Shown: positions 28,898-64,000 of the stretch, piece after piece
How the letters are laid out: the number at the start of each line of letters is the position of its first letter
How positions within the stretch are numbered: the stretch's first letter is position 1
Source of the DNA: Longimicrobiales bacterium
GTDB taxonomy: Bacteria; Gemmatimonadota; Gemmatimonadetes; Longimicrobiales; Gaopeijiaceae
Reading direction: 5' to 3'
Assembly (NCBI GenBank): GCA_965218295.1
Contig: CBDCKN010000013.1
Location: 416,001-480,000, forward strand
DNA length: 64,000 nt
Program-made: the position numbers and the translations under genes
The notes under the pieces: generated by a model
Seen by the model: only the letters and a program-made list of their open reading frames with translations
What the model was told of the DNA's origin: nothing
The model's database searches: none

Positions 28898-29269
28898 CTA
28901 CTTGGGTCTCTTGGCGCCGTACTTCGACCGACCCTGACGCCGATCACTGACACCGGAGGCATCCAGGGTCCCCCGGACGACGTGGTACCGCACTCCGGGC
29001 AAGTCCTTTACCCGTCCACCTCGAATGAGCACGATCGAGTGCTCCTGGAGGTTGTGTCCTTCCCCACCGATATATGACGTCACCTCGTACCCGTTGGTCA
29101 GCCGCACCCTTGCCACCTTTCGAAGCGCCGAATTGGGCTTCTTGGGGGTGGTGGTATACACCCGGGTGCAGACCCCTCGCTTCTGAGGGTTCTTCTGCAA
29201 CGCAGGGGACTTGTTCTTCTTGTGAAGCTCGCGCCGTCCCTTGCGAACGAGTTGGTTGATCGTAGGCAT
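28898..29269 (-). CDS. rpsL: 30S ribosomal protein S12
   Basis: [15 protein letters not shown]. Confidence 0.99.
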
Positions 29270-29481: not shown

Positions 29482-30645
29482 CTACTTCCCTTTTTCTGCC
29501 GCCCGTACCATACCGGAGCTTGTTCCCCGCCCCCCCACTGGACGCAAGGATTTCTGACGGACCAGCGTCGGCACCTGTGTGATGAAGTACGCCGTTCGCG
29601 AGACACACTCCCACAGCTGAAACGGCAACCTGGGCAGTTCATTAAATGGCCCTCCGACGCCTACCGTAGCCTGAATCGGATTGGGCCAACGGAGGCGAAG
29701 TGCTCTTAGCAGCTGGGCCGGGTGCCGGAAGGAGTACGCCATCGACGGACTATCCAGATAATGCTCCCCTATCGACCACTGGCTGAGCACTGAGGGAAGG
29801 AGCCATCGCGGCAGGTGTCTAGCCCCCTCTGCTGTTGGAATGCCGTCCAGGCGGGCCCCGAGAAGCTGGCGTGCCAGACACACGGTGCATGCCACCCAAT
29901 CCGCGCGCCGCCGGTCTCCCCGCAGCAGATACTCCCAATCAAAATCCTTGGGCAGAGATTCCAGCACGACGGCGATGTCGCACAACCACAGGGGGCGGTA
30001 CGCCCCATGGCCTAACATGTGTATGCACATGTAGCGGAGATGATCTTCGGTTCCCAATATCCGCACGTCGACCTCGCCCAGTGGTACCAGCTGAGAACGC
30101 TCGTAGACATCATCCAGCGAAGGGCGGTGGAGCTGGGGCAGACCCTTGTGCAAATCGACTACGACCGTCTCGGCCGCCGGAGCGGCAAGTGCAGCCACCG
30201 CAACCGCATACTGTTCCGGCCGAACACACAGGTCGATGTCTCCATAAGGCCGCAGCCCGCGTTCGGGGTACAGTCGAGCGACTGCCCAGCCCTTGACCAG
30301 CAGCGGCTCCACACCCCTTGACCGAAGTAGCGTGATGGCCTGGACGATTTGGCGTTCCTGGCGGCCAGCCTGGAGAGTGTACAGGCGGTATGCCTGCCGA
30401 AGTTCGTGGGCAGCGGCGGAGGTGCGCAACTCGGACGACCGCACCCGCCACCACCCCAGGCTCGCCGCTCCCGTGCCGAGCAGCAGGGGTGTGACCTCGA
30501 TGAGGGCGGCGGGCGAGAGCGACGGGGGCGGGGGTGGGGGGAAAGCACGCCAGGCGCCAGCGAGGACCGATGCTACCAGCCTACCGCGTCGTCCCGGGTC
30601 GTTGCCCATTCCCGAACTGAAGTGATCCCAGCGGTCAAAGGGCAA
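29482..30645 (-). CDS. Nucleotidyltransferase family protein (NTP_transf_5-like)
   Basis: Motifs PLLVKGWAVARLYP, RPYGDIDLCV, VDLH, WLCDIA. Likely start is the ATG at 30610. Confidence 0.82.
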   Translation of the reverse strand: MPFDRWDHFSSGMGNDPGRRGRLVASVLAGAWRAFPPPPPPSLSPAALIEVTPLLLGTGAASLGWWRVRSSELRTSAAAHELRQAYRLYTLQAGRQERQIVQAITLLRSRGVEPLLVKGWAVARLYPERGLRPYGDIDLCVRPEQYAVAVAALAAPAAETVVVDLHKGLPQLHRPSLDDVYERSQLVPLGEVDVRILGTEDHLRYMCIHMLGHGAYRPLWLCDIAVVLESLPKDFDWEYLLRGDRRRADWVACTVCLARQLLGARLDGIPTAEGARHLPRWLLPSVLSQWSIGEHYLDSPSMAYSFRHPAQLLRALRLRWPNPIQATVGVGGPFNELPRLPFQLWECVSRTAYFITQVPTLVRQKSLRPVGGRGTSSGMVRAAEKGK

Positions 30646-31057
30646 AAGATACGCTCGACGTTCACCCGGTCGGGGTTAGGGACAACCACATATGCTTTTT
30701 GCCTGGCCTGCAGGTAAACACAAGCCGTTGCAACACAATTTGTTGCAATTAATTGCGCACGGAGTGCAATTTGGAATCCCCGAACAACTTGTAACGCACG
30801 ATGCTTGTGCCGCCGCAAGTGGCGCGACGATCGATTCGATCACCGGCAGAAGGAGCGAGATCCCTGCAACCCGTCGCAGGGTTCGTAGCACTTCCCGCCG
30901 CGAGTATTTGCCCCTTTCTGCCGGCAGTGTCACCGGCTCACTCAGCAAGTGTGCCCTGTCCAAGCGGTCCAGCGCCATCCACACCCCTCTCTGCCAACTT
31001 ACGTGAGACACGGAGCAGCTAAGGAATTAGAGTAGGGCGAAGGCAGAGAAACCGAGG

Positions 31058-31507
31058 ATGCTGAGACACCGAGAGAGAATGAAAGAGAATGGAATAGCCC
31101 CACCAACCTGGGACGGTAAGCGAAGCGCGGCAGCTCCTGCGGACTCGGAGGTGGTAGATAGGCCGCTGCGCCGGCGGTTCGCTCCGTCGTACAAGCTGCG
31201 GATCGTCGAAGAAGCGGACCGGTGCACGGAGCCCGGAGAGGTTGGCCGACTCCTACGGCGGGAGGGCTTGTACTCGTCGCACCTGACGACATGGCGCAAG
31301 GCGGCGCATAGCGGGTCCCTGAAAGCGCTGTCGAAGAAACGAGGCCGTAAGCGCGAGCGCAATCCGCTGGAGGAGAAGGTGCGCAAGCTGGAGCGCGAGA
31401 ACACTCGCCTCGAGAAGGAGCTCCAGAAGGCGCACTTGATCATCGACGTCCAGGGAAAAGTTGCAGGGCTGCTGGGATTGAGCCTCGAGGACGGGACGAA
31501 CTCATGA
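31058..31507 (+). CDS. IS3-family transposase OrfA
   Basis: RRRFAPSYKLRIV...LLRREGLYSSHLTTWRK (HTH region) followed by a coiled coil. Confidence 0.9.
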   Translation: MLRHRERMKENGIAPPTWDGKRSAAAPADSEVVDRPLRRRFAPSYKLRIVEEADRCTEPGEVGRLLRREGLYSSHLTTWRKAAHSGSLKALSKKRGRKRERNPLEEKVRKLERENTRLEKELQKAHLIIDVQGKVAGLLGLSLEDGTNS

Positions 31508-32511
31508 AGGCGACCCAGGAGCTAGCCAAGCACGTAGGGGTGAAGCCCGCGTGCGATGCGCTCAGGGTGCCGCGAGCCACGTTCTACCGTCGTCGGAGTG
31601 CATCGACCGGGCATCAGCAGCCCCGCCCGACCCCCGCCCGGGCCTTAAGCGAGAAGGAACGAGACAAGGTCTTCGACACGCTGTGTTCGGAGCGGTTCGT
31701 GGACCGGTCCCCAGCCGAGGTGGTGGCGACGCTGCTCGACGAGGACGTCTACCTGTGCAGCGAGCGTACGATGTATCGCGTTCTGGCTTCCCAGGTGCCG
31801 GTTCAGGAGCGTCGAGCGCAGCGGAGTCATCCCAAATACCAGAAGCCCGAGTTGATGGCGAGGGGCCCGAACCAGGTCTGGTCCTGGGATATCACCCGGC
31901 TGCTGGGGCCGAAGAAGTGGAGTTACTTCTACCTCTACGTGATCCTGGACATCTTCAGCCGCTACGTCGTGGGATGGATGGTGGCGGATCGGGAGAACTC
32001 TGCCCTGGCCAGCCGGCTGATCCAGCAGAGTTGCTTGAAGCATGGCGTCCAGCCCCACCTCCTGACCCTGCATTCCGATCGAGGGGCTCCGATGACGAGC
32101 CAATGCACGGCTCAACTACTCGCCGATCTCGGCGTGACCCGCTCGTTGGGCCGACCCCAGGTCTCGGATGACAATCCGTTCTCCGAGGCTCAGTTCAAGA
32201 CCTTGAAGTACCATCCCTCGTTTCCCGGCCGGTTCGGGGATCAGGGGCAAGCCAAGACCTTCTGTCGCTCGTTCTTCCGTTGGTATAATGCCGAGCACCG
32301 CCATGGCGGCATCTCGATGCTGACCCCCGAACAGGTCCACTTCGGTCACGCCGATCGGATCATCGCCTGCAGGAAGGCCGTGCTCCGTGAGGCATGGGCC
32401 GCTCATCCCGAGCGCTTCGTCTCCGGTGAGCCGAAGCCTAAACCACTCCCGGAGGCCGTCTGGATCAATCCTCCCACCCCATCCCTCACTACACAGGAGA
32501 TTGCTCTCTAA
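31504..32511 (+). CDS. IS3-family transposase OrfB (DDE/rve)
   Basis: PNQVWSWDIT, LHSDRG, DNPFSEAQFKTLK. Confidence 0.95.
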   Translation: MKATQELAKHVGVKPACDALRVPRATFYRRRSASTGHQQPRPTPARALSEKERDKVFDTLCSERFVDRSPAEVVATLLDEDVYLCSERTMYRVLASQVPVQERRAQRSHPKYQKPELMARGPNQVWSWDITRLLGPKKWSYFYLYVILDIFSRYVVGWMVADRENSALASRLIQQSCLKHGVQPHLLTLHSDRGAPMTSQCTAQLLADLGVTRSLGRPQVSDDNPFSEAQFKTLKYHPSFPGRFGDQGQAKTFCRSFFRWYNAEHRHGGISMLTPEQVHFGHADRIIACRKAVLREAWAAHPERFVSGEPKPKPLPEAVWINPPTPSLTTQEIAL

Positions 32512-32871
32512 TTGATTTCCAAGAGTGTCTCACTGGCGTTGACAGGTTCCGCACCACCGCTTCGTCTGTCGCGGTTGCTAATTGCTCCTCCAGCAGCGCG
32601 GCTACATCGGCTACGCTCGTCTGTCCATCGCAGCACCGCCAGACCAGGGCCGCCGTGCGATTCAGGCAACGGGCCTTGTGACGCTTCAGGTCGTATACCA
32701 GGGTTTCGTCCTGTAGCTCTTCGACAACCAGCTCGTCTTGCCTCGCGCGCGGCATCAGCGCTCTTGTCGTTCCCATAGGTACCTAACTCCAAATCGCTGG
32801 CGCGTGTTGACACCATAACCATTCACCATTCATGCGATGCGCACAAGCCACAACTCGTCCCAAGCTACCTT

Positions 32872-33714
32872 TCACGAACCTCGGCCCGCCTGTTCCGCTA
32901 GCCGGCCTAAGAGGGCTTCAGCGATTTCGGCGGCCTCACCACGCGCCCCCTTTAGCACCATCGCCTCGGCCGTGGCCGAACGCAGCGTCGCGAAGGCCCG
33001 CTCCGGATCGTGTCTGGCGGAAACGGTGTGGGCCAAGAGTTCCATCACCGCCCGCCCCGGCGAAAGCGGGCGCGGTCGCCACCGCGCACCCTCCCGGTAG
33101 CTTGTCGCGACTACCAAACCTACTGGGAGCGGTCTGACGCCGGTTGTCCCCCCCAGAGCTTCCGGGAGGATCTTCTTCGGGCGTCCGCCCCCGTTCTCCC
33201 GTATCGACATAGGCTTCAGATAGGGATGCACCCGACCACGCTCATCCAAAACGGCGTACTCATCTGAGTAATACGTCGCACCGGCCCTTACCAGGGCCCT
33301 GACCAGGGTCGTCTTGCCGCTCATAGTACGCCCTGGGATGACGATTGCCCTGCCACGCCAGCCCACGACGCCGGCATGGACGAACACCCTGCGGCGGGCC
33401 CGTTCCACGACGTATAGCTGCAGGTCCCTTTCGAGGGCTTCCAGCACCTGGTCCGTGTCCTTCGTTCGTGCCAGCTGTACCACGTCCGCATATAGAATAT
33501 TGAAACGGCGAATGTTGGAGCCGACCTTGGTTCCGCTGACTATCAGCGAATACAGACATCCGACGCGGGACCCGCGAGCTGGCTTGGTATGTGGTGGAAG
33601 CACTCCTTCAATCCGATCCATGATCTCCGGGCTACTCACTCGGATCCCGATGCGTAACCCGTAGGAGACGAACGCGATCCCTGCCGCCCACCCGAGGCGG
33701 TCTAGCTGCTTCAC
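32872..33714 (-). CDS. HPr kinase-related P-loop kinase
   Basis: HAGVVGWRGRAIVIPGRTMSGKTTL...YYSDEYAVLD matches the HprK-like HA...GxSGKT...SDE signature. Confidence 0.82.
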   Translation of the reverse strand: MKQLDRLGWAAGIAFVSYGLRIGIRVSSPEIMDRIEGVLPPHTKPARGSRVGCLYSLIVSGTKVGSNIRRFNILYADVVQLARTKDTDQVLEALERDLQLYVVERARRRVFVHAGVVGWRGRAIVIPGRTMSGKTTLVRALVRAGATYYSDEYAVLDERGRVHPYLKPMSIRENGGGRPKKILPEALGGTTGVRPLPVGLVVATSYREGARWRPRPLSPGRAVMELLAHTVSARHDPERAFATLRSATAEAMVLKGARGEAAEIAEALLGRLAEQAGRGS

Positions 33715-33965: not shown

Positions 33966-34005
33966 AAAAATTATGAGGGGGAGTGCCCATCGGGCACTCC
34001 CCCTC
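33966..34005 (-). terminator. Rho-independent terminator downstream of rpoC
   Basis: Perfect 14-bp stem GAGGGGGAGTGCCC / GGGCACTCCCCCTC followed on the minus strand by ATAATTTTT. Confidence 0.75.
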
Positions 34006-34117: not shown

Positions 34118-37100
34118 CTAGTCCGCAGTAACCTCCTCCAGCCCGATCAGCTCGCCCGGATCCACCAACGGAAGAATCTCCTCCTCGTAGAACGATTGCT
34201 CGACCATGAACTCCACGTCCTGATACCGATGGACACCGGTTCCGGCTGGGATGAGGTGACCGATGATGATGTTCTCCTTGAGCCCCTTCAGGTCGTCCCT
34301 GGCGCCCCGGACCGCGGCGTCCGTAAGCACGCGGGTCGTCTCCTGGAAGGAGGCGGCCGAGATGAAAGACTCGGTCGTGAGGCTCGCCTTGGTGATCCCC
34401 AGCAGCAGCGGCTCGGAGCGAGCCGGCTTCTTGCCGTCTTTGATCGACTTTCGGTTCACCTCGCGGAATTCGACCCGGTCGACGTTTTCCCCTTCCAGCA
34501 GCGCCGTCTCACCGGGATCGGTGATGCGGACCTTCTGGAGCATCTGCCGGACGATCACACCGATGTGCTTGTCGTTGATCTTCACGCCCTGCAGTCGGTA
34601 CACCTCCTGGATCTCGTTGAGCAGGTACTCCTGCACGGCACGGGGCCCACGGATCTTCAGGATGTCGTGCGGGTTGATGGGACCCTCGGACAGACGGTCA
34701 CCCGCCCGCACCCGGTCACCCTCGTGCACCCGCATGTGCTTGCCGACGGGCACCGGGTAAGCCCTCTCGTCCTCCTCCCCGGTGTCCGGCGTCACGATGA
34801 CTTCGCGCTTGCCTCGCTTGATGTCGCCGAAACGTACGTCGCCATCGATCTCCGTGATGACCGCCGGATCCTTCGGGCGACGCGCCTCGAAGAGCTCGGC
34901 AACGCGCGGCAGACCCCCAGTGATGTCTCGGGTCTTATACACCTCGCGGCTGATCTTGGCGATGGTGTCGCCGGGGTTGACCGCCTCACCGTCCCGGACC
35001 GTGAGCTGGGCGCCCATCGGGATGATGAACTCCCGGAGCTTCTCGGCCTTCTTCGTGCTCTTCCGAATCTGGATATTCGGGTGCAGCTTCTTGTCGCGAT
35101 CCTCGATGATCGTCATCTGGCGACGACCCGTGGACTCGTCCAGCTCCTCCCTCATGGTCTGCTCGTCGACGATGTCGATGAACTTCACGACCCCGCCGGA
35201 GTCGGCCACGATGGGCTCGGAATACGGATCCCAGCTGAAGAGCACGTCTCCGGACTCGATCACCTGCCCCTCTTCAGCCGCAAGCGTCGCGCCGTACGGC
35301 ACGCTCAGGCGACTACGGACCTGGCCCTCCGCCGTCTTGAGCAGGATCTGCCCCTCGCGTGAGGTCACGATCAGCTCGTCGTTGGGCGTAAGAACCGTGG
35401 TGACGCGCTCGAGAGACGCCACGCCGTCGATCTTCGAGCGACGCTGCGTCTGAGCCGCGATCCTGGCCGCCGTTCCTCCGATGTGGAACGTCCGCAGCGT
35501 GAGCTGCGTCCCGGGCTCACCGATCGACTGGGCCGCCAGAATCCCGACGGCCTCGCCGATGTCCACCAGCTGCATGGTGGCCAGGTTCCGGCCATAGCAC
35601 ATGTGGCAGAGGCCCCTCTTGGACTCACACGTCAGCACGGACCGGATCTTCACGACCTGAATCCCTGCGGCTTCGATGGCGTCCGCGGTCTCCTCTTCGA
35701 TGAGATGGCCGGCCTGGACCAGCAACTCTCCGTCGATGGGATCGTAGACGTCCTCGAGGGCCACGTTGCTCACGATTCGGTCCATGAGAGGCTCGATGAT
35801 GTCCTCACCCTCCTTGAGGGCGGTCATCTCGAGGCCGAGGATGGTACCGCAGTCTTCCCCGGTGATGGTCACGTCCTGGGCGACGTCGACGAGGCGGCGC
35901 GTGAGATACCCTGCGTCCGCCGTCTTCAGCGCCGTGTCGGCGAGACCCTTCCGCGCTCCGTGGGTCGAGATGAAGTACTCCACCACCGACAGCCCCTCGC
36001 GGAAGTTGGACTTGATGGGGCTCTCGATGATCTCGCCGATGCCACCGGTGAGCTTCTTTTGGGGCTTGGCCATGAGGCCACGCATCCCGGCGAGCTGCCG
36101 CATCTGGTCGCGGTTACCCCGCGCCCCGGAGGTCATCATCATGTAGACGGGGTTGAAGCCATCCTGAGAACGCTCCAGCCGCTTGACCATGGCGTCGGCT
36201 ACGTCGTTGTTGGCGTGGGTCCAGGTGTCGATGACCTTGTTGTACCGCTCACCGTTGGAGATGTAGCCGCTGGAGTACGCCTTCTGGAAGCGCGTGACCT
36301 GCTCGCTGGCTTCGTCCAGGATCTCCAGCTTCTCCTCCGGCACCTCGAGGTCGGCGATACCCACGCTGACCCCACCTATGGTGGCGTACCGGAAGCCGAA
36401 GTCCTTCAGATAGTCCAGGAACTCAGTCGTACGGCTCAGCCCCACGGTGGTGAAACTGTCGAAGATGAGGTCTCCCAACTCCTTCTTGCCGAACGTCTGG
36501 TTGAAGAAGCCCAGCTCCGCCGGGATGATGGAGTTGAACAGCACGCGTCCCGCCGTGCACCTGAGCCACTTGCCATCGTGGTCTCCGTCCTCCTCGGGAT
36601 GCTTCGGCACCCAGTACCAGCACGGGCTGTTGAACCGGAGCCAACCGCTCTCCAGCCCCATCTCCACCTCTCCGAACGTGGAGAAGTGGGGAACGTCGGC
36701 GTAGATCTGGTCAAGGCCCTCTTCGGCAGCGGCCCGAGCGTTCTTGGGCGCCTTGCTGTTGTACGCCACCTCCTCCAGGTCCGAGATCTCCAGGGCCGGC
36801 TTGGTGAGGTAGTACCCACCGATGACCATGTCCTGGGACGGCGCCGTGACCGGCCGGCCGTTGGATGGCAGCAGGATGTTGTTGCTCGATAGCATGAGCA
36901 CCCGCGCCTCGAGCTGCGCCTCGAACGACAGAGGTACGTGAACCGCCATCTGGTCCCCGTCGAAGTCGGCGTTGAACGCCGCGCACACGAGCGGGTGGAT
37001 CCGGATGGCCTTCCCCTCCACGAGCACGGGCTCGAACGCCTGGATGCCCAGCCGGTGGAGCGTCGGGGCCCGGTTCAGCAGCACTGGGTGGTCTTTGATG

Positions 37101-38413
37101 ATGTCCTCGAGGACTTCATAGACCTTCGGATCGTCACGCTCGACGATCTTCTTGGCTCTCTTGACCGTCTCGGCCTCGCCCCGCTTCTCGAGCTCGTGGA
37201 TGATGAACGGCTTGAACAGCTCCACGGCCATGGCCTTGGGCAGGCCGCACTGGTGCAGTTTGAGCTCGGGACCGACCACGATGACCGAGCGACCGGAGTA
37301 GTCCACCCGCTTCCCGAGCAGGTTCTGGCGGAAGCGTCCCTGCTTGCCCTTGAGCATGTCGGACAGTGACTTGAGGGGACGCTTGCCCCGACCGCGAATG
37401 GCCTTCGAACGACGCCCGTTGTCGAAGAGCGCGTCGACGGCCTCCTGAAGCATGCGCTTCTCATTCCGGAGGATGACCTCCGGGGCGCGCATGTCGATGA
37501 GCTTCTTGAGCCGGTTGTTCCGGTTGATGACCCGACGGTACAGGTCGTTCAGGTCGGAGGTGGCGAACCGTCCTCCGTCCAGCGGAACCAGAGGCCGAAG
37601 GTCGGGCGGAATCACCGGAATCACATCCATGACCATCCACTCGGGCCGGTTCCGTTGGCCCACGCTGCCGCCCGAGTTGCGTAAGGCGTCGACCACCTTG
37701 AGCCGCTTCAGCTTCTTCTTCTTGCGGTGCTGTGACGTCTCAGTGGCGATCTCGATCCGCAGCCAAAGTGCCAGGCGATCGAGGCCCTTGCCGTCGGAGT
37801 TGCGATCGTTGATCCGGCGCTCCGGGCTGTCGAGCATCTTGAGAAGCGTGCGAACCGCCTCGGCACCGATCTCGGCCTTGAACCTCTCGTCGCCCTTGTC
37901 TCGCGACTTCACCCGCAGATCGTAGTACTCGTCCTCGTCCAGGAGCTCGAGGAACTCGACATCCTGCTTGCCGGGGTGCGTCACCACGTACGAGGCGTAG
38001 TAGATCACCTTCTCCAGATCCCGCAGCGTCATCCCGACCAGGTACCCCAGCTGGCTGGGTAGCGTCTTGAAGAACCAGATGTGACAGATGGGCACTGCCA
38101 ACTCGATGTGGCCCATGCGCTCGCGGCGAACCTTGGAGAGCGTGACCTCGACCCCGCAGCGATCACAGACGTGTCCCCGGAACCGGATCCGCTTGAACTT
38201 CCCGCAGTGACACTCCCAGTCCTTCACCGGACCGAAGATGCGCTCACAGAACAGTCCGTCCCGCTCCGGCTTGAAGGACCGGTAGTTGATGGTCTCGGGC
38301 TTCGTCACCTCACCGAACGACCAGGAGCGGATCTCCTCGGGAGAGGCGATTCTGATCTGGATGAAGTCGAAGTCCGCGGAGCGCTGCTCGCTCGACCTGG
38401 GAAAATCGATCAT
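34118..38413 (-). CDS. rpoC: RNA polymerase subunit beta'
   Basis: NADFDGD catalytic motif, 1431 aa. Confidence 0.99.
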
Positions 38414-46264: not shown

Positions 46265-47835
<1,571 letters not shown>

Positions 47836-47890
47836 CATTCCCCTCGTCGCGTTGGTTCGCTTCCTTCGTTGTTCCCCTGCAGCACCTGAG

Positions 47891-47962
47891 AGCTCCGACC
47901 GGGATTTGAACCCGGGACCTCCTCCTTACCAAGGAGGCGCTCTACCACTGAGCTATCGGAGC
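47891..47962 (-). tRNA. tRNA-Thr(GGT)
   Basis: GCTCCGATAGCTCAGTGGTAGAGC...TTGGTAA...GGTTCAAATCCC; folds as a cloverleaf. Confidence 0.96.
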
Positions 47963-47976
47963 GCCACCCACAATAG

Positions 47977-48050
47977 AGCGGGAGACGGGACTCGAACCCG
48001 CGACCCTCAGCTTGGAAGGCTGATGCTCTAGCCAACTGAGCTACTCCCGC
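47977..48050 (-). tRNA. tRNA-Gly(TCC)
   Basis: GCGGGAGTAGCTCAGTTGGCTAGAGC...CTTCCAA...GGTTCGAGTCCC. Confidence 0.96.
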
Positions 48051-48076
48051 AAAGCAACCGTCCGTTGGGACTCAAG

Positions 48077-48158
48077 TGGTGGGGGTAGGATTCGAACCTA
48101 CGAAGGCTAAGCCAGCAGATTTACAGTCTGCCCCGTTTGACCGCTTCGGTACCCCACC
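48077..48158 (-). tRNA. tRNA-Tyr(GTA)
   Basis: GGTGGGGTACCGAAGCGGTCAAACGG...CTGTAAA..., long variable arm, GGTTCGAATCC. Confidence 0.96.
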
Positions 48159-50712: not shown

Positions 50713-50785
50713 CCCTCTCTGCCAACTTACGTGAGACACGGAGCAGCTAAGGAATTAGAGTAGGGCGAAGGCAGAGAAACCGAGG

Positions 50786-51235
50786 ATGCTGAGACACCGA
50801 GAGAGAATGAAAGAGAATGGAATAGCCCCACCAACCTGGGACGGTAAGCGAAGCGCGGCAGCTCCTGCGGACTCGGAGGTGGTAGATAGGCCGCTGCGCC
50901 GGCGGTTCGCTCCGTCGTACAAGCTGCGGATCGTCGAAGAAGCGGACCGGTGCACGGAGCCCGGAGAGGTTGGCCGACTCCTACGGCGGGAGGGCTTGTA
51001 CTCGTCGCACCTGACGACATGGCGCAAGGCGGCGCATAGCGGGTCCCTGAAAGCGCTGTCGAAGAAACGAGGCCGTAAGCGCGAGCGCAATCCGCTGGAG
51101 GAGAAGGTGCGCAAGCTGGAGCGCGAGAACACTCGCCTCGAGAAGGAGCTCCAGAAGGCGCACTTGATCATCGACGTCCAGGGAAAAGTTGCAGGGCTGC
51201 TGGGATTGAGCCTCGAGGACGGGACGAACTCATGA
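50786..51235 (+). CDS. IS3-family transposase OrfA
   Basis: Protein identical to copy 1. Confidence 0.9.
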   Translation: MLRHRERMKENGIAPPTWDGKRSAAAPADSEVVDRPLRRRFAPSYKLRIVEEADRCTEPGEVGRLLRREGLYSSHLTTWRKAAHSGSLKALSKKRGRKRERNPLEEKVRKLERENTRLEKELQKAHLIIDVQGKVAGLLGLSLEDGTNS

Positions 51236-52239
51236 AGGCGACCCAGGAGCTAGCCAAGCACGTAGGGGTGAAGCCCGCGTGCGATGCGCTCAGGGTGCCG
51301 CGAGCCACGTTCTACCGTCGTCGGAGTGCATCGACCGGGCATCAGCAGCCCCGCCCGACCCCCGCCCGGGCCTTAAGTGAGAGGGAGCGGGACAAGATTT
51401 TCGACACCCTGTGTTCGGAGCGGTTCGTGGACCGGTCCCCAGCCGAGGTGGTGGCGACGCTGCTCGACGAGGACGTCTACCTGTGCAGCGAGCGTACGAT
51501 GTATCGCGTTCTGGCTTCCCAGGTGCCGGTTCAGGAGCGTCGAGCGCAGCGGAGTCATCCCAAATACCAGAAGCCCGAGTTGATGGCGAGGGGCCCGAAC
51601 CAGGTCTGGTCCTGGGATATCACCCGGCTGCTGGGGCCGAAGAAGTGGAGTTACTTCTACCTCTACGTGATCCTGGACATCTTCAGCCGCTACGTCGTGG
51701 GATGGATGGTGGCGGATCGGGAGAACTCTGCCCTGGCCAGCCGGCTGATCCAGCAGAGTTGCTTGAAGCATGGCGTCCAGCCCCACCTCCTGACCCTGCA
51801 TTCCGATCGAGGGGCTCCGATGACGAGCCAATGCACGGCTCAACTACTCGCCGATCTCGGCGTGACCCGCTCGTTGGGCCGACCCCAGGTCTCGGATGAC
51901 AATCCGTTCTCCGAGGCTCAGTTCAAGACCTTGAAGTACCATCCCTCGTTTCCCGGCCGGTTCGGGGATCAGGGGCAAGCCAAGACCTTCTGTCGCTCGT
52001 TCTTCCGTTGGTATAATGCCGAGCACCGCCATGGCGGCATCTCGATGCTGACCCCCGAACAGGTCCACTTCGGTCACGCCGATCGGATCATCGCCTGCAG
52101 GAAGGCCGTGCTCCGTGAGGCATGGGCCGCTCATCCCGAGCGCTTCGTCTCCGGTGAGCCGAAGCCTAAACCACTCCCGGAGGCCGTCTGGATCAATCCT
52201 CCCACCCCATCCCTCACTACACAGGAGATTGCTCTCTAA
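51232..52239 (+). CDS. IS3-family transposase OrfB
   Basis: DDE motifs as in copy 1. Confidence 0.95.
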   Translation: MKATQELAKHVGVKPACDALRVPRATFYRRRSASTGHQQPRPTPARALSERERDKIFDTLCSERFVDRSPAEVVATLLDEDVYLCSERTMYRVLASQVPVQERRAQRSHPKYQKPELMARGPNQVWSWDITRLLGPKKWSYFYLYVILDIFSRYVVGWMVADRENSALASRLIQQSCLKHGVQPHLLTLHSDRGAPMTSQCTAQLLADLGVTRSLGRPQVSDDNPFSEAQFKTLKYHPSFPGRFGDQGQAKTFCRSFFRWYNAEHRHGGISMLTPEQVHFGHADRIIACRKAVLREAWAAHPERFVSGEPKPKPLPEAVWINPPTPSLTTQEIAL

Positions 52240-52807
52240 TTGATTTCCAAGAGTGTCTCACTGGCGTTGACAGGTTCCGAGCGTCGCCGCGAACCCACGG
52301 AGTTGGCAGATCGCGCTTTCTCGCCGGCCATATTGAGGACTTGGCAGAGGGCTTCGGATTCTCCTCCTTGGCGCGAATCCAGCCGTCAAAAACTGTGGTC
52401 GCAGGTCACACCAAGGACAGATCCACCGCATTCAAGAAAGAAGATTGACCCGTTGTCGAGGACACCATCGTCCTCTTCAGAGCGCGGGTCCCCCAGTAGA
52501 TAGGTGCGACGTATCCGGCTGCGGTCCGGAACAGCGTCTCACCATAGCCCCCTCAAGGATCCGAATTGCTTCTTCTCGCGAAGGGACCTCTGCACCCCGT
52601 ACGGCGTCACGGCCCGCGTTTCGACCGCTCTCACCCGGCATCACGTCGCACGCCTCAGGGGAGGCTTCTCGCGGTAATCAGCAAGTAGCACTTGAGCGGA
52701 TCTAGCCCATTCCGTCATCTGGGCTCGGGATGCAATGGGTTCCGGGGCCTTGGAAGAAGCGGAGACCCAGCAACCCTAACACTCTACTGGTTCCCCTCTT
52801 ACGTCAA

Positions 52808-52880
52808 AGCTGGCGAACGGACTCGAACCGTTAACCTGCTGCTTACAAGGCAGCTGCTCTGCCAATTGAGCTACGCCAGC
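52808..52880 (-). tRNA. tRNA-Thr(TGT)
   Basis: GCTGGCGTAGCTCAATTGGCAGAGC...CTTGTAA...GGTTCGAGTCC...CGCCAGCT. Confidence 0.93.
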
Positions 52881-53523: not shown

Positions 53524-53630
53524 AGGTGGCCTCGCTCGGTGTTCTAGCGATGCTGCCCCCTCTCTGCCAACTTACGTGAGACACGGAGCAGCTAAGGAAT
53601 TAGAGTAGGGCGAAGGCAGAGAAACCGAGG

Positions 53631-54080
53631 ATGCTGAGACACCGTGAGAGAATGAAAGAGAATGGAATAGCCCCACCAACCTGGGACGGTAAGCGAAGCG
53701 CGGCAGCTCCTGCGGACTCGGAGGTGGTAGATAGGCCGCTGCGCCGGCGGTTCGCTCCGTCGTACAAGCTGCGGATCGTCGAAGAAGCGGACCGGTGCAC
53801 GGAGCCCGGAGAGGTTGGCCGACTCCTACGGCGGGAGGGCTTGTACTCGTCGCACCTGACGACATGGCGCAAGGCGGCGCATAGCGGGTCCCTGAAAGCG
53901 CTGTCGAAGAAACGAGGCCGTAAGCGCGAGCGCAATCCGCTGGAGGAGAAGGTGCGCAAGCTGGAGCGCGAGAACACTCGCCTCGAGAAGGAGCTCCAGA
54001 AGGCGCACTTGATCATCGACGTCCAGGGAAAAGTTGCAGGGCTGCTGGGATTGAGCCTCGAGGACGGGACGAACTCATGA
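53631..54080 (+). CDS. IS3-family transposase OrfA
   Basis: Protein identical to copy 1. Confidence 0.9.
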   Translation: MLRHRERMKENGIAPPTWDGKRSAAAPADSEVVDRPLRRRFAPSYKLRIVEEADRCTEPGEVGRLLRREGLYSSHLTTWRKAAHSGSLKALSKKRGRKRERNPLEEKVRKLERENTRLEKELQKAHLIIDVQGKVAGLLGLSLEDGTNS

Positions 54081-55084
54081 AGGCGACCCAGGAGCTAGCC
54101 AAGCACGTAGGGGTGAAGCCCGCGTGCGATGCGCTCAGGGTGCCGCGAGCCACGTTCTACCGTCGTCGGAGTGCATCGACCGGGCATCAGCAGCCCCGCC
54201 CGACCCCCGCCCGGGCCTTAAGTGAGAGGGAGCGGGACAAGATTTTCGACACCCTGTGTTCGGAGCGGTTCGTGGACCGGTCCCCAGCCGAGGTGGTGGC
54301 GACGCTGCTCGACGAGGACGTCTACCTGTGCAGCGAGCGTACGATGTATCGCGTTCTGGCTTCCCAGGTGCCGGTTCAGGAGCGTCGAGCGCAGCGGAGT
54401 CATCCCAAATACCAGAAGCCCGAGTTGATGGCGAGGGGCCCGAACCAGGTCTGGTCCTGGGATATCACCCGGCTGCTGGGGCCGAAGAAGTGGAGTTACT
54501 TCTACCTCTACGTGATCCTGGACATCTTCAGCCGCTACGTCGTGGGATGGATGGTGGCGGATCGGGAGAACTCTGCCCTGGCCAGCCGGCTGATCCAGCA
54601 GAGTTGCTTGAAGCATGGCGTCCAGCCCCACCTCCTGACCCTGCATTCCGATCGAGGGGCTCCGATGACGAGCCAATGCACGGCTCAACTACTCGCCGAT
54701 CTCGGCGTGACCCGCTCGTTGGGCCGACCCCAGGTCTCGGATGACAATCCGTTCTCCGAGGCTCAGTTCAAGACCTTGAAGTACCATCCCTCGTTTCCCG
54801 GCCGGTTCGGGGATCAGGGGCAAGCCAAGACCTTCTGTCGCTCGTTCTTCCGTTGGTATAATGCCGAGCACCGCCATGGCGGCATCTCGATGCTGACCCC
54901 CGAACAGGTCCACTTCGGTCACGCCGATCGGATCATCGCCTGCAGGAAGGCCGTGCTCCGTGAGGCATGGGCCGCTCATCCCGAGCGCTTCGTCTCCGGT
55001 GAGCCGAAGCCTAAACCACTCCCGGAGGCCGTCTGGATCAATCCTCCCACCCCATCCCTCACTACACAGGAGATTGCTCTCTAA
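54077..55084 (+). CDS. IS3-family transposase OrfB
   Basis: Protein identical to copy 2. Confidence 0.95.
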   Translation: MKATQELAKHVGVKPACDALRVPRATFYRRRSASTGHQQPRPTPARALSERERDKIFDTLCSERFVDRSPAEVVATLLDEDVYLCSERTMYRVLASQVPVQERRAQRSHPKYQKPELMARGPNQVWSWDITRLLGPKKWSYFYLYVILDIFSRYVVGWMVADRENSALASRLIQQSCLKHGVQPHLLTLHSDRGAPMTSQCTAQLLADLGVTRSLGRPQVSDDNPFSEAQFKTLKYHPSFPGRFGDQGQAKTFCRSFFRWYNAEHRHGGISMLTPEQVHFGHADRIIACRKAVLREAWAAHPERFVSGEPKPKPLPEAVWINPPTPSLTTQEIAL

Positions 55085-55176
55085 TTGATTTCCAAGAGTG
55101 TCTCACTGGCGTTGACAGGTTCCGCCCCGCCTTCCAGTCCAAGCCTTCCGTCGTCAAAGTGGTTTTGTAAACGTGA

Positions 55177-59697: not shown

Positions 59698-60928
59698 TGT
59701 GCTGAGACGGTATTCACCTGACAGTTGACCACGAGAGAGGACGGTGGCCAGCCGCCCTCGCCGGAGCTAATTGAGAGATGTCGAAGTCACTCACTTAGCA
59801 CGGGAGAGAAGATGACCACCGTCCAGGGGGAGAAGATAGCGCGCCGCAAGCTGAGCCTGCTACAGTTGGCCCAGGAGCTCGGCAACGTGAGCAAGGCGTG
59901 CAAGATCGTGGGCTACAGCCGGCAGCAGTTCTACGAGATCAGGAGGAACTTCCAGCTTTACGGGGCCGAGGGGCTGATCGACCAGCTTCCGGGGCCGAAG
60001 GGACCGCACCCGAACCGGGTGAGTGAAGAGATTGAGCAGGCGGTCTTGGCCCACGCCTTGGAGGCTCCGACGCACGGAGCTCAGCGGGTCGCGGACGAGT
60101 TGCTGCTCGGAGGGATCCAGGTGAGCTCAGGAGGCGTACGGGGCGTGTGGAGCCGGCATGGCCTCACCACGAAGCACGAACGGCTGCTCAGGCTCGAAGA
60201 GACGGCCAGGGAACGGAAGCTGAAGCTGACCGACGAGCAGATCGAGCTGCTGGAGCGCTTCAGTCCCGAGTTCCGGGAGCGCCACATCGAAGTCCATTAC
60301 CCGGGCGACCTCGTCGCCGTGGACACGTTCTTCGTCGGAACGCTGAAGGGGGTCGGCAAGGTGTACCTGCAGACCGTGCTCGATTGCTTCAGCCGCTACG
60401 CCTGGGGCCGGCTCTACACGAGCAAGCTCCCGCTCACGGCGGTGCAGGTGATGAATAACGACGTGTTGCCGTTCTTCGATGAGCACCGGGTCCGGGTGAA
60501 GACCGTGCTCAGCGACAACGGCCGCGAGTTCTGCGGCCGTCCGGACCGTCACCCATATGAGCTGTTCCTTCAGCTCGAGGACATCGAGCACCGCACGACG
60601 AAGGTGGGCAGGCCCCAGTCCAACGGCTTCATCGAGCGCTTCCACCGCACGCTCCTCGACGAGCACTTGAGGGTGAAGGGCCGCACCACCTGGTACGAGA
60701 CCGTCGAGGAGATGCAGCAGGACCTCGAGGCGTATCTGGAGACCTACAACCGGAAGCGGCCGCACCGCGGTCGAGCCATGGAGGGCCGCACGCCCTATCA
60801 GGTCTTCAAGGCCGGTCTCACCGACGCCAGGAAGGCCGCAAAGGCCAGGAAGGAGGAGGCTAAGACGAAGGCAGCCTAGACACAGCTCCGGCGAGGGCCA
60901 ACTGTCAGGTCATTACCATCTCTGTACA
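59698..60928 (+). mobile_element. IS481-family element (1231 bp) with 7-bp target duplication ACCCGCT
   Basis: TGT...ACA ends with roughly 30-bp imperfect inverted repeats; ACCCGCT at 59691-59697 and 60929-60935. Confidence 0.92.
59812..60879 (+). CDS. IS481-family transposase
   Basis: LAQELGNVSKAC, PGDLVAVDTFFVG, LSDNGREF, PQSNGFIERF. Confidence 0.93.
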   Translation: MTTVQGEKIARRKLSLLQLAQELGNVSKACKIVGYSRQQFYEIRRNFQLYGAEGLIDQLPGPKGPHPNRVSEEIEQAVLAHALEAPTHGAQRVADELLLGGIQVSSGGVRGVWSRHGLTTKHERLLRLEETARERKLKLTDEQIELLERFSPEFRERHIEVHYPGDLVAVDTFFVGTLKGVGKVYLQTVLDCFSRYAWGRLYTSKLPLTAVQVMNNDVLPFFDEHRVRVKTVLSDNGREFCGRPDRHPYELFLQLEDIEHRTTKVGRPQSNGFIERFHRTLLDEHLRVKGRTTWYETVEEMQQDLEAYLETYNRKRPHRGRAMEGRTPYQVFKAGLTDARKAAKARKEEAKTKAA

Positions 60929-61036: not shown

Positions 61037-63268
61037 TCATGTGCGTGCGAGCACCTGTTCGAACCACAGGATGGCTGCCTCGCCCTCTTTTCGCGTAACC
61101 TCGTCAACAGATCGACTGTGGCGTATGCCGTTTCGTAGTTCTGCCAATTGGCCGAACTTCGCCGACAGCGTCTCCTTGTTCACGAATATATTCTCAAAAC
61201 CCTGCCAGAGTCTCTTGCTGAGGATCGTATCCTGCAACTCTCTCAGATCACAGTACTCAAGACGCCGGCTCAACTGTTTGTACTGATCGAGTTCGATGTT
61301 TGCATTCTTCTTTGCGGCAGCCTGGATGCGTTCATCAGCTTTCTGAAGCACGTGCGGTGGAAGCCGCTCAGCATCATCTTCGAGTGTTGTGACCACTTGT
61401 TCGCGGAGAGCCAACTCAATGCCTTCGACCCGCTCGTCCAACTCGCGTAGCTGGGGCGACAGATCGATCCTCTCCTTGATCAGCAGGTTCTCAATCGCCT
61501 CCAGCAACGTACGCTGGCGTTCAACAATGAAGGCCTCGTAGTCGTCTGCAGTGAACGGATTGCGCAACAGCACCTCCAGAGCCGCCGATGAGATGAAGTG
61601 CGACTCGAACATGCTGCGCACGGCGTTCTCTCCGTTTTGCTCGATCAACTCCGGCAAATATTCGTTCGGGAACCGGTCGCGAATGACGCCTCGATTCGTC
61701 TCGGCAGTGAGCGGCGTGCGGTTCAGAATGGAGTGGATCAACGCACCAGTTCCAAGGGCAGTAGCCTTCGATGCCGGGATGATGTGATGATCGTCCAGGT
61801 CACCGTGTTGAGGCACATTGCCGCTCATCCAGTCCCGCGCGCCCTGGATAACGAGCAAATTGAAGATGCCATTATAGACCGACGTTCCGCGCTTGACTTC
61901 ACGGCGAAGCTCTAAACTTCGGAAACGCATTCCAAATTCCTGGATCAGCCCTGGCTCGCTAGCGTCGTCATCCATCCAGGCCTTAAGGTCCAGGAAATCC
62001 CGGGCTGCGGTGGACTCGACAGAACCCGAATAGCGGTTCAGGAATACCGAGGCCCAGTACCAATACCGGACCTTGCGCTGCGCTTCGAGTCTCCGGTTGG
62101 CCGGCAATCCTCTGACGTGCTCTTGTACAGCAGAAAACACCGGGATAATCGAAACGTAGGGGAGGTAGTTCGAAGAGATCGCTCTGAACTCCTGAGGATG
62201 ACGCAAGAGCTTGATGGCCCTCTCAATCGCATCGACGGCATCGTTCCAACGATGCCTGAATGCCGACGTGTCAGCAACCAGCACTTCCTTGCGGCGCGTT
62301 CCATCCGGGTCGCGAACTGGTTTCTCTTGTCCGGGAAGAAGGAAGTAGAGGTACTTTGGCGAGCAGTACCCTTGCCTGAGAATCGACATCACCTGCAAGA
62401 TGTAGACATTCATCTTGTTCGAGTCGACGAACTCGAGGCGGGCGGCAGCGTCACGCCACATCTGCTTCAACCGCACACCCTTCGGTCTGAGCAACGCGTT
62501 GATGAGGTCGAAGGTGTCGAGCTGAGCACCTTTGCTGTTGATTTGCGTGAAAATATCGCAGACCTTGTCGATCCCGAGTTGCTGATCGAGTTCGATATAC
62601 GAAATCTGGTACTGCTCTGTAAGATTATGAAGGTACTCGCCGAACGCCTCCGCGTTTTCGGCATGCAGCACTGCCTGCTGGTGCAGGCTATCGTTGCCCG
62701 CCAACTCCCAGGCGGCGGCTACGTCACGCCAGTACTTTTCGTATCCCTGCACCCAGTTGGGTAGCGCGAAACGCTTTTCCCCGACAACGGCCAATGGAAA
62801 GACGTGGTCCGCATACTGCTGCTCACGATTCGTGATGAGCTTCGCCCAGCGTTTCGACCAATCGTACGCGAACGCATTGTCGTACTCCTCGGTCATGAAA
62901 CGGTCGACGTGAACGAAGTAGAAATACCGATTTACTCGATTGGGCAGAGCTTTATCGGGTGCCAGGAATGCGTAGTACATGGCCGTGAGTCGCTGCTGCC
63001 CGTCCAGCACGATGTATTCCGGCTTCCCTGAGCCTCCATAGCCATAGACTGGTTCACAGGACAACGCCGCGAAATTCTCCTCCTTGCCAGCCCAGAGCAA
63101 CAGGCTGCCGATGTAGTAGTCGAGAAAAATCGAGCGCATGAGATCGCGAACGTCCCATGGTTGCCACTCGAACTCGCGCTGGAAGTCGGGAATGACGAAC
63201 CGCCCTTCCCGCAAGCGTCCAATTAGAGTGTTTAGGCTGATGTGGTCAGGTTTCTGTGCATCTTTCAA
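61037..63268 (-). CDS. GmrSD-like DUF262 + HNH (DUF1524-like) protein with a C-terminal Swt1-like HEPN domain
   Basis: IPDFQREFEW, LDGQQRLT, FTQINSKG; DDHHIIP...NRTPLTAETN; C-terminal RNGIRH (Rx4H). Confidence 0.82.
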   Translation of the reverse strand: MKDAQKPDHISLNTLIGRLREGRFVIPDFQREFEWQPWDVRDLMRSIFLDYYIGSLLLWAGKEENFAALSCEPVYGYGGSGKPEYIVLDGQQRLTAMYYAFLAPDKALPNRVNRYFYFVHVDRFMTEEYDNAFAYDWSKRWAKLITNREQQYADHVFPLAVVGEKRFALPNWVQGYEKYWRDVAAAWELAGNDSLHQQAVLHAENAEAFGEYLHNLTEQYQISYIELDQQLGIDKVCDIFTQINSKGAQLDTFDLINALLRPKGVRLKQMWRDAAARLEFVDSNKMNVYILQVMSILRQGYCSPKYLYFLLPGQEKPVRDPDGTRRKEVLVADTSAFRHRWNDAVDAIERAIKLLRHPQEFRAISSNYLPYVSIIPVFSAVQEHVRGLPANRRLEAQRKVRYWYWASVFLNRYSGSVESTAARDFLDLKAWMDDDASEPGLIQEFGMRFRSLELRREVKRGTSVYNGIFNLLVIQGARDWMSGNVPQHGDLDDHHIIPASKATALGTGALIHSILNRTPLTAETNRGVIRDRFPNEYLPELIEQNGENAVRSMFESHFISSAALEVLLRNPFTADDYEAFIVERQRTLLEAIENLLIKERIDLSPQLRELDERVEGIELALREQVVTTLEDDAERLPPHVLQKADERIQAAAKKNANIELDQYKQLSRRLEYCDLRELQDTILSKRLWQGFENIFVNKETLSAKFGQLAELRNGIRHSRSVDEVTRKEGEAAILWFEQVLART

Positions 63269-63308: not shown

Positions 63309-64000
63309 CCCTCTCTGCCAACTTACGTGAGACACGGAGCAGCTAAGGAATTAGAGTAGGGCGAAGGCAGAGAAACCGAGGATGCTGAGACACCGAGAGA
63401 GAATGAAAGAGAATGGAATAGCCCCACCAACCTGGGACGGTAAGCGAAGCGCGGCAGCTCCTGCGGACTCGGAGGTGGTAGATAGGCCGCTGCGCCGGCG
63501 GTTCGCTCCGTCGTACAAGCTGCGGATCGTCGAAGAAGCGGACCGGTGCACGGAGCCCGGAGAGGTTGGCCGACTCCTACGGCGGGAGGGCTTGTACTCG
63601 TCGCACCTGACGACATGGCGCAAGGCGGCGCATAGCGGGTCCCTGAAAGCGCTGTCGAAGAAACGAGGCCGTAAGCGCGAGCGCAATCCGCTGGAGGAGA
63701 AGGTGCGCAAGCTGGAGCGCGAGAACACTCGCCTCGAGAAGGAGCTCCAGAAGGCGCACTTGATCATCGACGTCCAGGGAAAAGTTGCAGGGCTGCTGGG
63801 ATTGAGCCTCGAGGACGGGACGAACTCATGAAGGCGACCCAGGAGCTAGCCAAGCACGTAGGGGTGAAGCCCGCGTGCGATGCGCTCAGGGTGCCGCGAG
63901 CCACGTTCTACCGTCGTCGGAGGCCATCGACCGGGCATCAGCAGCCCCGCCCGACCCCCGCCCGGGCCTTAAGCGAGAAGGAACGAGACAAGGTCTTCGA
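63309..64000 (+). mobile_element. IS3-family element, copy 4 (cut by the window end)
   Basis: Same left end, orfA at 63382..63831 and the start of orfB. Confidence 0.95.
63382..63831 (+). CDS. IS3-family transposase OrfA
   Basis: Protein identical to copy 1. Confidence 0.9.
   Translation: MLRHRERMKENGIAPPTWDGKRSAAAPADSEVVDRPLRRRFAPSYKLRIVEEADRCTEPGEVGRLLRREGLYSSHLTTWRKAAHSGSLKALSKKRGRKRERNPLEEKVRKLERENTRLEKELQKAHLIIDVQGKVAGLLGLSLEDGTNS

Follow-up and report, generated by a model that had tools for sequence, protein, structure and literature searches.

The stretch of DNA analysed here, called the window below, comprises 64,000 nucleotides of a contig from a Longimicrobiales bacterium (Gemmatimonadota). 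Between its rpoC and rpsL genes lies a cassette of three co-oriented minus-strand genes encoding, in this order, an HprK-like kinase, a PqqD fusion protein and a nucleotidyltransferase-family protein of the NTP_transf_5 type. A first-pass annotation had proposed this arrangement from the letters alone, and the coordinates and family matches bear it out (Table 1). These genes, together with an insertion sequence (IS) that splits the fusion gene, are the sole content of the rpoC-rpsL interval, and the lasso cyclase, B2 protease and radical SAM enzyme that the annotation had reported as missing from the locus are indeed not among them. On balance, we favor the view that the cassette yields a secreted mini-protein, phosphorylated and disulfide-bonded, whose precursor has its own recognition domain. 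This precursor would be the fusion protein, in which the recognition element (RRE) typical of peptides that are made ribosomally and then modified post-translationally (RiPPs) is followed by a conserved leader and a hypervariable, cysteine-rich core.

The insertion, by an IS3-family element, interrupts the last helix of the RRE. Removal of the IS and one 3-bp duplicate restores a single open frame of 176 amino acids, which is 85% identical over 175 amino acids to an intact gene at the same site in G193, a genome of the same genus. The proposal that an RRE is fused to its own candidate substrate holds for this read-through frame, while in the present assembly the fusion is split. Contigs of runs X1 and X15 join position 30981 to 32552, omitting 1570 bases, indicating that IS-free alleles exist; run X1 is possibly the source sample and so not independent. 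One RNA run had in its library a junction contig free of the IS, from a related strain (about 96% alike); we take this as presence only, with no transcription implied. An assembly chimera is ruled out by the 3-bp duplication, the in-frame read-through, the intact homolog in G193 and the IS-free joints. The single PqqD match in the genome (90.7% complete) is the split fusion gene, and a motif scan of the same genome found no second precursor. With its only precursor gene split by the IS, the assembled strain probably has no active pathway. A script counted 37 end-to-end matches to the IS in the genome (including a few double counts), 18 of them with exactly 3 duplicated bases, and the approximately 35 copies point to a recent burst. 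The copies in the window (30985-32551, 50713-52279, 53558-55124, and 63309-64000, the last cut by the window edge) are 99.5–100% alike. Unusually for an IS3 element, their ends extend 7 bases past the TG...CA inverted repeats, and tandem copies are also present. A GTG within the IS end opens a frame of 111 amino acids (30676-31011, minus strand) that contains leader and core without the RRE, with the arginine pair at about residue 38; through this frame an exported precursor lacking the RRE could in principle survive the insertion.

Table 1. Features of the rpoC-rpsL interval and its flanks, in window coordinates.
Feature	Position	Strand	Basis or remark
rpoC	34118-38413		upstream flank of the cassette
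Terminator-like hairpin 3' of rpoC	33975-34005	-	14-pair stem and T run
HprK-like P-loop peptide kinase, 280 aa	32872-33714	-	TIGR04352 below cut-off, motif register, model fold
Precursor, 5' part (residues 1-74)	32555-32776	-	PqqD/RRE domain, for the most part
IS3-family insertion sequence, 1567 bp	30985-32551	+	NF033516 over cut-off
IS orfA	31058-31507	+	
IS orfB	31504-32511	+	
3-bp target duplication	30982-30984 and 32552-32554		flanks the IS
Precursor, 3' part (residues 75-135)	30802-30984	-	RRE end, linker, twin-arginine leader, AxA site
Twin-arginine motif S102-R103-R104	30895-30903	-	
Predicted core (residues 136-176)	30676-30801	-	Ser136, then 10-cysteine variable peptide
NTP_transf_5 (PsmN/LppN-type) nucleotidyltransferase-family gene	29482-30645	-	PF14907
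rpsL	28898-29269		downstream flank of the cassette

The PqqD domain of the precursor scored above the PF05402 cut-off (E = 2.2e-8). A model of the intact homolog L001, built from a 39-row alignment (A1) that included L033 of the unpublished genome G174, has the three-strand, three-helix order of an RRE, with a predicted local distance difference test (pLDDT) value above 90 across most of residues 10-90. Its best matches in the PDB are lasso B1 proteins bound to leader peptides (best E = 2.2e-3, TM-to-target 0.70), and a Foldseek search with the fusion model returned nothing at E≤0.001. The single-chain model of L001 also predicts a lone strand at leader residues 123-126. The RRE is joined to both leader and core, and is thus not the discrete protein found in the system of linear polyphosphorylated peptides (LPP) compared below. 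A weak search (one candidate), which is not proof of absence, found no shorter leader-core proteins without an RRE. Membership in the PQQ pathway is ruled out by TIGR03859 scores of about 20–22 bits against a cut-off of 46 and by a locus free of pqq genes, and the intact fusions matched none of the HPr-rel-A PqqD models.

Conservation was followed in two sets of homologs. Set 1 comprised 171 full-length proteins (locus open reading frames (ORFs) of at least 145 amino acids, including the window read-through, and the 120 listed of 2,122 hits), and set 2 the top 150 of the 2,120 50%-identity representatives, of which 131 could be scored by pattern and 19 could not. The window leader contains a hydrophobic stretch with L-x-x-P121-x-I, followed by an Ala-rich AxA site of the signal-peptidase type, and the family motif is (L/V/I)xxPx(V/I) inside an internal twin-arginine leader. 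The arginine pair is kept in 170 of 171 proteins of set 1, at residue 91-129, and in 130 of the 131 scored in set 2. Of the 171, 169 contain a 6-mer resembling the consensus for twin-arginine translocation (Tat) and 165 an AxA-like site. The residue three before the proline is L, V or I in 159/170, which fits the W/Y/L-x-x-P recognition class. Ser or Thr stands 15 residues after the leader proline (Pro+15) in 159 of 170 proteins of set 1 and in 118 of the 131 scored in set 2; at +16 to +19 it occurs in at most 32 of set 2, and the core background of Ser plus Thr is 16%. The candidate phosphoacceptor of the window protein is Ser136 (Pro121+15). Since the first Cys directly follows the Pro+15 Ser/Thr in only 61/131 of set 2, the position of this residue tracks the leader and not the Cys.

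The core is as variable as the annotation had anticipated. Compared with the window protein, 73 homologs with RRE identity of at least 75% were 86% identical in the RRE and 88% in the leader, but 25% in the core, and 13% at its non-Cys positions. The number of Cys is 6, 8 or 10 in 165/169 set-1 cores, and even in 122 of the 127 set-2 cores having three or more. The commonest framework (73/170) is C-C-CC-C-C, a spacing that we take to be that named inhibitor cystine knot, and a Pfam match to UPF0506 spans the six-Cys core. Two RRE-leader fusions (L053, 8153-8638; L102, 7209-7718) have Cys-free tails and keep the Ser at the core start, suggesting that the design extends beyond disulfide cores.

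The kinase matched TIGR04352 (HprK_rel_A) with E = 2.8e-15 and 56.2 bits against a cut-off of 200. Residues H113, G128, G133, K134, S150, D151 and E152 are conserved across its homologs, and H113, G128, G133, K134, T135, D151 and E152 align in register with H148-G163-G166-G168-K169-S170-D186-D187 of BsfK, with five motif positions identical, two conservative and one lost. The kinase model (pLDDT 87) matched PEPCK and HprK/P in Foldseek (E from 4e-6 to 9e-4); when solved structures were searched by sequence, neither the kinase nor the nucleotidyltransferase gave a significant hit. LppK phosphorylates Ser3, located 15 residues after the leader proline, and does not accept Thr (PMC13381572), while BsfK phosphorylates Ser3 or Thr3, 16 residues past its proline, and is strongly accelerated by the RRE (PMC10368454). 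The nucleotidyltransferase matched PF14907 (NTP_transf_5) with E = 3.4e-29. Its longest frame, 387 amino acids, begins at a TTG, the ATG at 30609 being the likelier start, and K118-G119, R132 and D136-x-D138 are conserved. PsmN needs its D-x-D pair (D134 and D136) and is required for the addition of one or two hexoses to phosphoserine (PMC6993621), and LppN showed no activity or effect on the peptide (PMC13381572). With a hexose-adding PsmN and a silent LppN, a shift of +162 Da is at least as likely as that of a nucleoside monophosphate. Of the phosphorylate-then-nucleotidylate order first suggested for this locus, the first step has gained a candidate acceptor in the Pro+15 Ser/Thr; nucleotidylation has no direct support, given these two precedents and the loci that lack the third gene.

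Linkage was scored in the best 80 of 406 loci confirmed by kinase similarity, from an incomplete scan in which many loci end at contig edges. The 80 are mostly from Acidobacteriota (Pyrinomonadaceae) and Gemmatimonadota, and the nearest named relatives by kinase similarity are Gemmatimonadota metagenome-assembled genomes. All three genes occur together in 41 loci, as the annotation's expectation of conserved synteny implied: 37 have the window order, and 4 another order or a fragment. A further 26 have kinase and nucleotidyltransferase without the fusion, 8 kinase and fusion only, and 5 the kinase alone, giving totals of 49/80 for kinase with fusion and 67/80 for kinase with nucleotidyltransferase. 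The three-gene arrangement is beyond chance. Among genomes of fusion-less loci, 31 of 31 had a fusion match elsewhere, full-length at E<1e-40 in 28 and with 2–5 such copies in 22; without the unpublished G018 and G021 these counts are 26/29 and 20/29. Of 121 host-phylum genomes, chosen as an even sample, 4 had the fusion and 5 the kinase; all four with the fusion had the kinase no more than about 1.2 kb away on one contig with it. The system's distribution is patchy, with a tighter tie between kinase and fusion than with the third gene. The cassette is also found at rpoC-rpsL in L003, L004, L005, G145, G192 and G193, with three tandem precursors in L005 and two whole cassettes in G192. At 50% identity and E≤1e-30, the fusion family falls into no fewer than 2,120 clusters, and its present label is simply 'PqqD family protein'.

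We propose that the fused RRE would hold the leader in cis, that the kinase would phosphorylate the Pro+15 Ser/Thr at the start of the core, and that the nucleotidyltransferase-family enzyme may then decorate the phosphate, with a sugar by the sole precedent, or with a nucleotide. Guided by the internal twin-arginine leader, the core would pass through Tat and be released by signal peptidase I, the AxA cut leaving the Ser/Thr at position 1–3 of the released core, and the core cysteines would pair outside the cytoplasm. By analogy with characterized homologs, phosphorylation is quite probable, and decoration of the phosphate is slightly favored. Export by Tat and cleavage seem reasonably likely from the motifs, which also suggest binding of RRE to leader in cis and disulfides formed outside the cytoplasm. 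A gene for TatC, which is common and not specific, is present in the genome, and Tat can handle both a signal placed internally after a folded cytoplasmic domain (class V, FecR) and small unfolded cargo (PMC13673990). RRE help supplied in cis would explain why precursors can lie scattered singly around a genome. More tentatively, the cassette may represent a new RiPP design, in which a cytoplasmic RRE recruits a shared kinase and phospho-decorator, the Tat signal is the leader, and the product is a phospho(glycosyl)ated mini-protein of the knottin type. With an RRE built into every precursor, a single pair of enzymes could serve numerous precursors that are dispersed and diversify quickly.

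Several observations weigh against this interpretation. The Pro+15 residue is not Ser/Thr in 11/170 and 13/131 proteins of the two sets (Asn in 7 of the first), several of the 19 unscorable representatives lack the proline, and the search profile itself included the Pro+15 column. Small residues are in any case common just after signal-peptidase sites, and the arginine pair lies far from the N-terminus. The Tat review does not include an internal cleaved signal in the five classes that it sets out (PMC13673990), and BsfA lacking the Y, P and L of YxxPxL was still phosphorylated (PMC10368454), indicating that the leader motif by itself is not necessarily what directs the kinase. Of the 80 loci, 13 (some at contig edges) lack the nucleotidyltransferase, and a single query found it in just 2 of the 121 phylum genomes, compared with 5 that have the kinase, suggesting that it is not obligatory. 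Many Pyrinomonadaceae loci carry the enzyme pair behind glycosyltransferase-4, O-antigen-ligase and TPR genes with no adjacent precursor, and kin genomes are not independent.

The same peptide chemistry could conceivably operate without Tat. The arginine-containing stretch would then be a recognition leader only, cut by a cytoplasmic protease, and the core, possibly metal-binding, would remain inside or leave by another route. The position of the arginine pair, about 100 residues from the N-terminus, is consistent with this, as are a C25-peptidase-domain gene near 11/80 loci and a putative Lon-like protease gene beside several dispersed precursors. For LPP and lasso leaders, likewise, dedicated proteases do the cutting, in the cytoplasm or at the membrane. 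However, arginine pair, hydrophobic stretch and AxA site are jointly kept in nearly all homologs, and the core neighbors include neither a peptide exporter nor a dedicated peptidase: an SpI-like peptidase and an MsbA-like exporter were not found at the window locus, nor recognized in the ORF families common to at least 6 of the 80 loci, of which a part was run against Pfam. The even Cys counts, the C-C-CC-C-C framework and the UPF0506 match also fit disulfides, and we consider this alternative unlikely.

Equally, the enzyme pair might act on a sugar or surface-polysaccharide intermediate, first phosphorylating it and then activating it with a nucleotide, the fusion being an unmodified exported or membrane-anchored co-traveller. 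The 26/80 loci with the pair and no adjacent fusion, commonly after glycosyltransferase-4, O-antigen-ligase, TPR and Wzz-type genes, agree with this view, as does the lack of an effect of LppN on its peptide (PMC13381572). But characterized kinases of this motif type phosphorylate peptide Ser (PMC6993621, PMC13381572, PMC10368454), LPP and paeninodin clusters are also found in polysaccharide loci (PMC13381572), and genomes with the bare pair carry the fusion elsewhere (31/31 with a match). The window, L003, L004 and L005 loci have no polysaccharide genes, only rpoC and rpsL, and a role in polysaccharide synthesis leaves the Pro+15 Ser/Thr unexplained; we regard it as improbable.

Export through Tat, as we propose it, could also end at the membrane if the fusion were a Tat lipoprotein with a lipidated first Cys, or an uncleaved class V protein whose leader persists as a transmembrane anchor, with the RRE as a cytoplasmic sensor or dock. 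The leader of close homologs ends in small residues right before a Cys, and class V substrates, which are uncleaved, share the domain order (PMC13673990). A strict lipobox ahead of the first Cys, though, was present in 0/167 and 4/142 homologs, which rules out membership among the Tat lipoproteins, and leaving out the first Cys makes the count odd. The position of that Cys is variable in distant homologs, the AxA site is conserved, and anchoring of either kind appears very unlikely.

Lasso pathways of the Paeninodin/Bsf type are ruled out by the missing cyclase C and B2 protease. An AsnB query of the 80 loci matched only a GlmS, with no cyclase context, so the cyclase-containing cluster that could have been the normal setting of these genes was looked for and not found. 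The best Asn_synthase match in the window's own genome, a full-length AsnB-type ORF, lies among unrelated genes, with two weaker matches besides, and no B2 protease there exceeded the cut-off, a weak match being a long transglutaminase-like ORF. That the cassette belongs, in an accessory role, to a lasso or radical-SAM RiPP pathway with core enzymes encoded elsewhere is the least credible of these alternatives, since, although the genome is 90.7% complete and a B2-type protease exceeds the cut-off in 9 of 40 carrier genomes (drawn from the 49 fusion-bearing loci), the other 31 and the window's own genome have none, the sole AsnB-like match is that GlmS, and cores with 6–10 Cys and no fixed Asp/Glu at position 7–9 are not lasso-like.

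Examination of the surroundings gave further observations. The hairpin after rpoC suggests that the cassette is transcribed separately from rpoBC, but it is a consensus match only, and such sites are no more numerous than in shuffled sequence; no sigma-70-like promoter was found. In relatives, the cassette is interrupted between genes (L001, 9879-11579; L003, 8898-13025; L116, 5588-6541) by what we take to be a toxin-antitoxin-like pair, pilin-like genes and another transposase, and with these repeated interruptions the rpoC-rpsL site looks like an insertion hotspot. A gene of 383 amino acids with an N-terminal CxxCxxxCC lies in or beside the cassette in three Gemmatimonadota (L005, 10953-12104; L063, 10288-11439; L115, 9614-10765); it has a weak FliB-family match (E = 1e-3) and is possibly an extra tailoring enzyme. 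Dispersed precursors in L089, L090, L091, L093, L095, L100 and L102 often adjoin the putative Lon-like protease gene, and the large proteins flanking 11/80 cassettes have a C-terminal Peptidase_C25 domain (e.g., L012, 10556-14752; L048, 4588-7848). Elsewhere, the window has ordinary island content, with a GmrSD-family restriction gene (61037-63268, minus strand), a second, integrase-family transposase (59725-60879, plus strand), and four tRNA genes (47890-48158 and 52808-52880) near a second tuf copy (46645-47838).

If our interpretation is correct, the fusion family would be a large source of disulfide-rich, modified, secreted peptides from uncultured Acidobacteriota and Gemmatimonadota. A leader that doubles as RRE recognition sequence and internal cleavable Tat-type signal would be new for protein export, could be useful for engineering the secretion of modified peptides, and would define a sixth class of Tat substrate, internal and cleaved. 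The three-gene form is also the smallest test bed for the role of PsmN/LppN/BsfN-type enzymes.

Among known systems, HPr-rel-A (TIGR04352) likewise has an HprK-related kinase adjoining a PqqD-family protein and a nucleotidyltransferase, but its PqqD is a discrete protein, and TIGR04353, which we take to be its partner model, was not returned by any search. The window kinase, at 56 bits against 200, falls below the TIGR04352 cut-off, which rules out membership, and the fusions miss its PqqD models. Phosphorylated lasso peptides (pseudomycoidin, PMC6993621; Bsf, PMC10368454; paeninodin) share the kinase motif H...GxxxxGK[ST]...DD, an NTP_transf-type partner with D-x-D, the lasso-B1-like RRE fold, and, in BsfK, action on Ser3/Thr3 with the help of an RRE. 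They differ in having cyclase C, B2 protease and ABC exporter, whereas the window cassette has none of these, a non-lasso core, and its RRE in cis. FecR and other class V Tat substrates (PMC13673990) resemble the fusions in their folded N-terminal domain, internal twin-arginine signal and exported C-terminal part; their signal is described as uncleaved, whereas the AxA site conserved here points to cleavage and the cargo is a Cys-rich peptide of 20–50 amino acids.

The closest relative in its working is LPP of Bacillota (LppA/K/B/S/D/N; Popov et al. 2026, PMC13381572), which has an HprK-like kinase, RRE and NTP transferase with no macrolactam cyclase, a conserved leader followed by a variable C-terminus, a Pro-to-Ser spacing of 15, leader removal by an enzyme of the signal-peptidase-I type (predicted here), and frequent polysaccharide-gene neighborhoods. 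The differences are equally clear. The RRE is discrete in LPP and fused to the precursor here. LPP has a dedicated SpI peptidase and MsbA-like exporter, which we did not recognize among shared neighbors. Its leader reads YxxPxVLxHQxIxFETxxS, while the twin-arginine, hydrophobic, AxA-ended leader here shares only xxPx[VI] and the spacing. LppK refuses Thr, which is common at the site here, where the core is of the disulfide type. Hosts here are Gemmatimonadota, Acidobacteriota and others, with precursors often dispersed and in several copies. The cassette is therefore LPP-like in its working but lies outside LPP by its fused RRE, its lack of the SpI peptidase and ABC exporter, and its leader motif. 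In a published survey, 21% of PF05402 proteins exceed the size of a discrete RRE and contain no other Pfam domain (PMC12710340), and the fusions would belong to that bin. A fusion of RRE, twin-arginine leader and Cys-rich core is undescribed in the open-access literature consulted, which also includes PMC13186574, and the supplements of RRE surveys (PMC7470986, PMC12710340) could list such proteins. With LPP, a cyclase-free RiPP system of kinase, RRE and NTP transferase had already been published, and the novelty first claimed for this locus narrows to the precursor architecture and the export route. What is new is the fused RRE, the predicted internal cleavable Tat-type signal and the putative disulfide core, and the chemistry less so.

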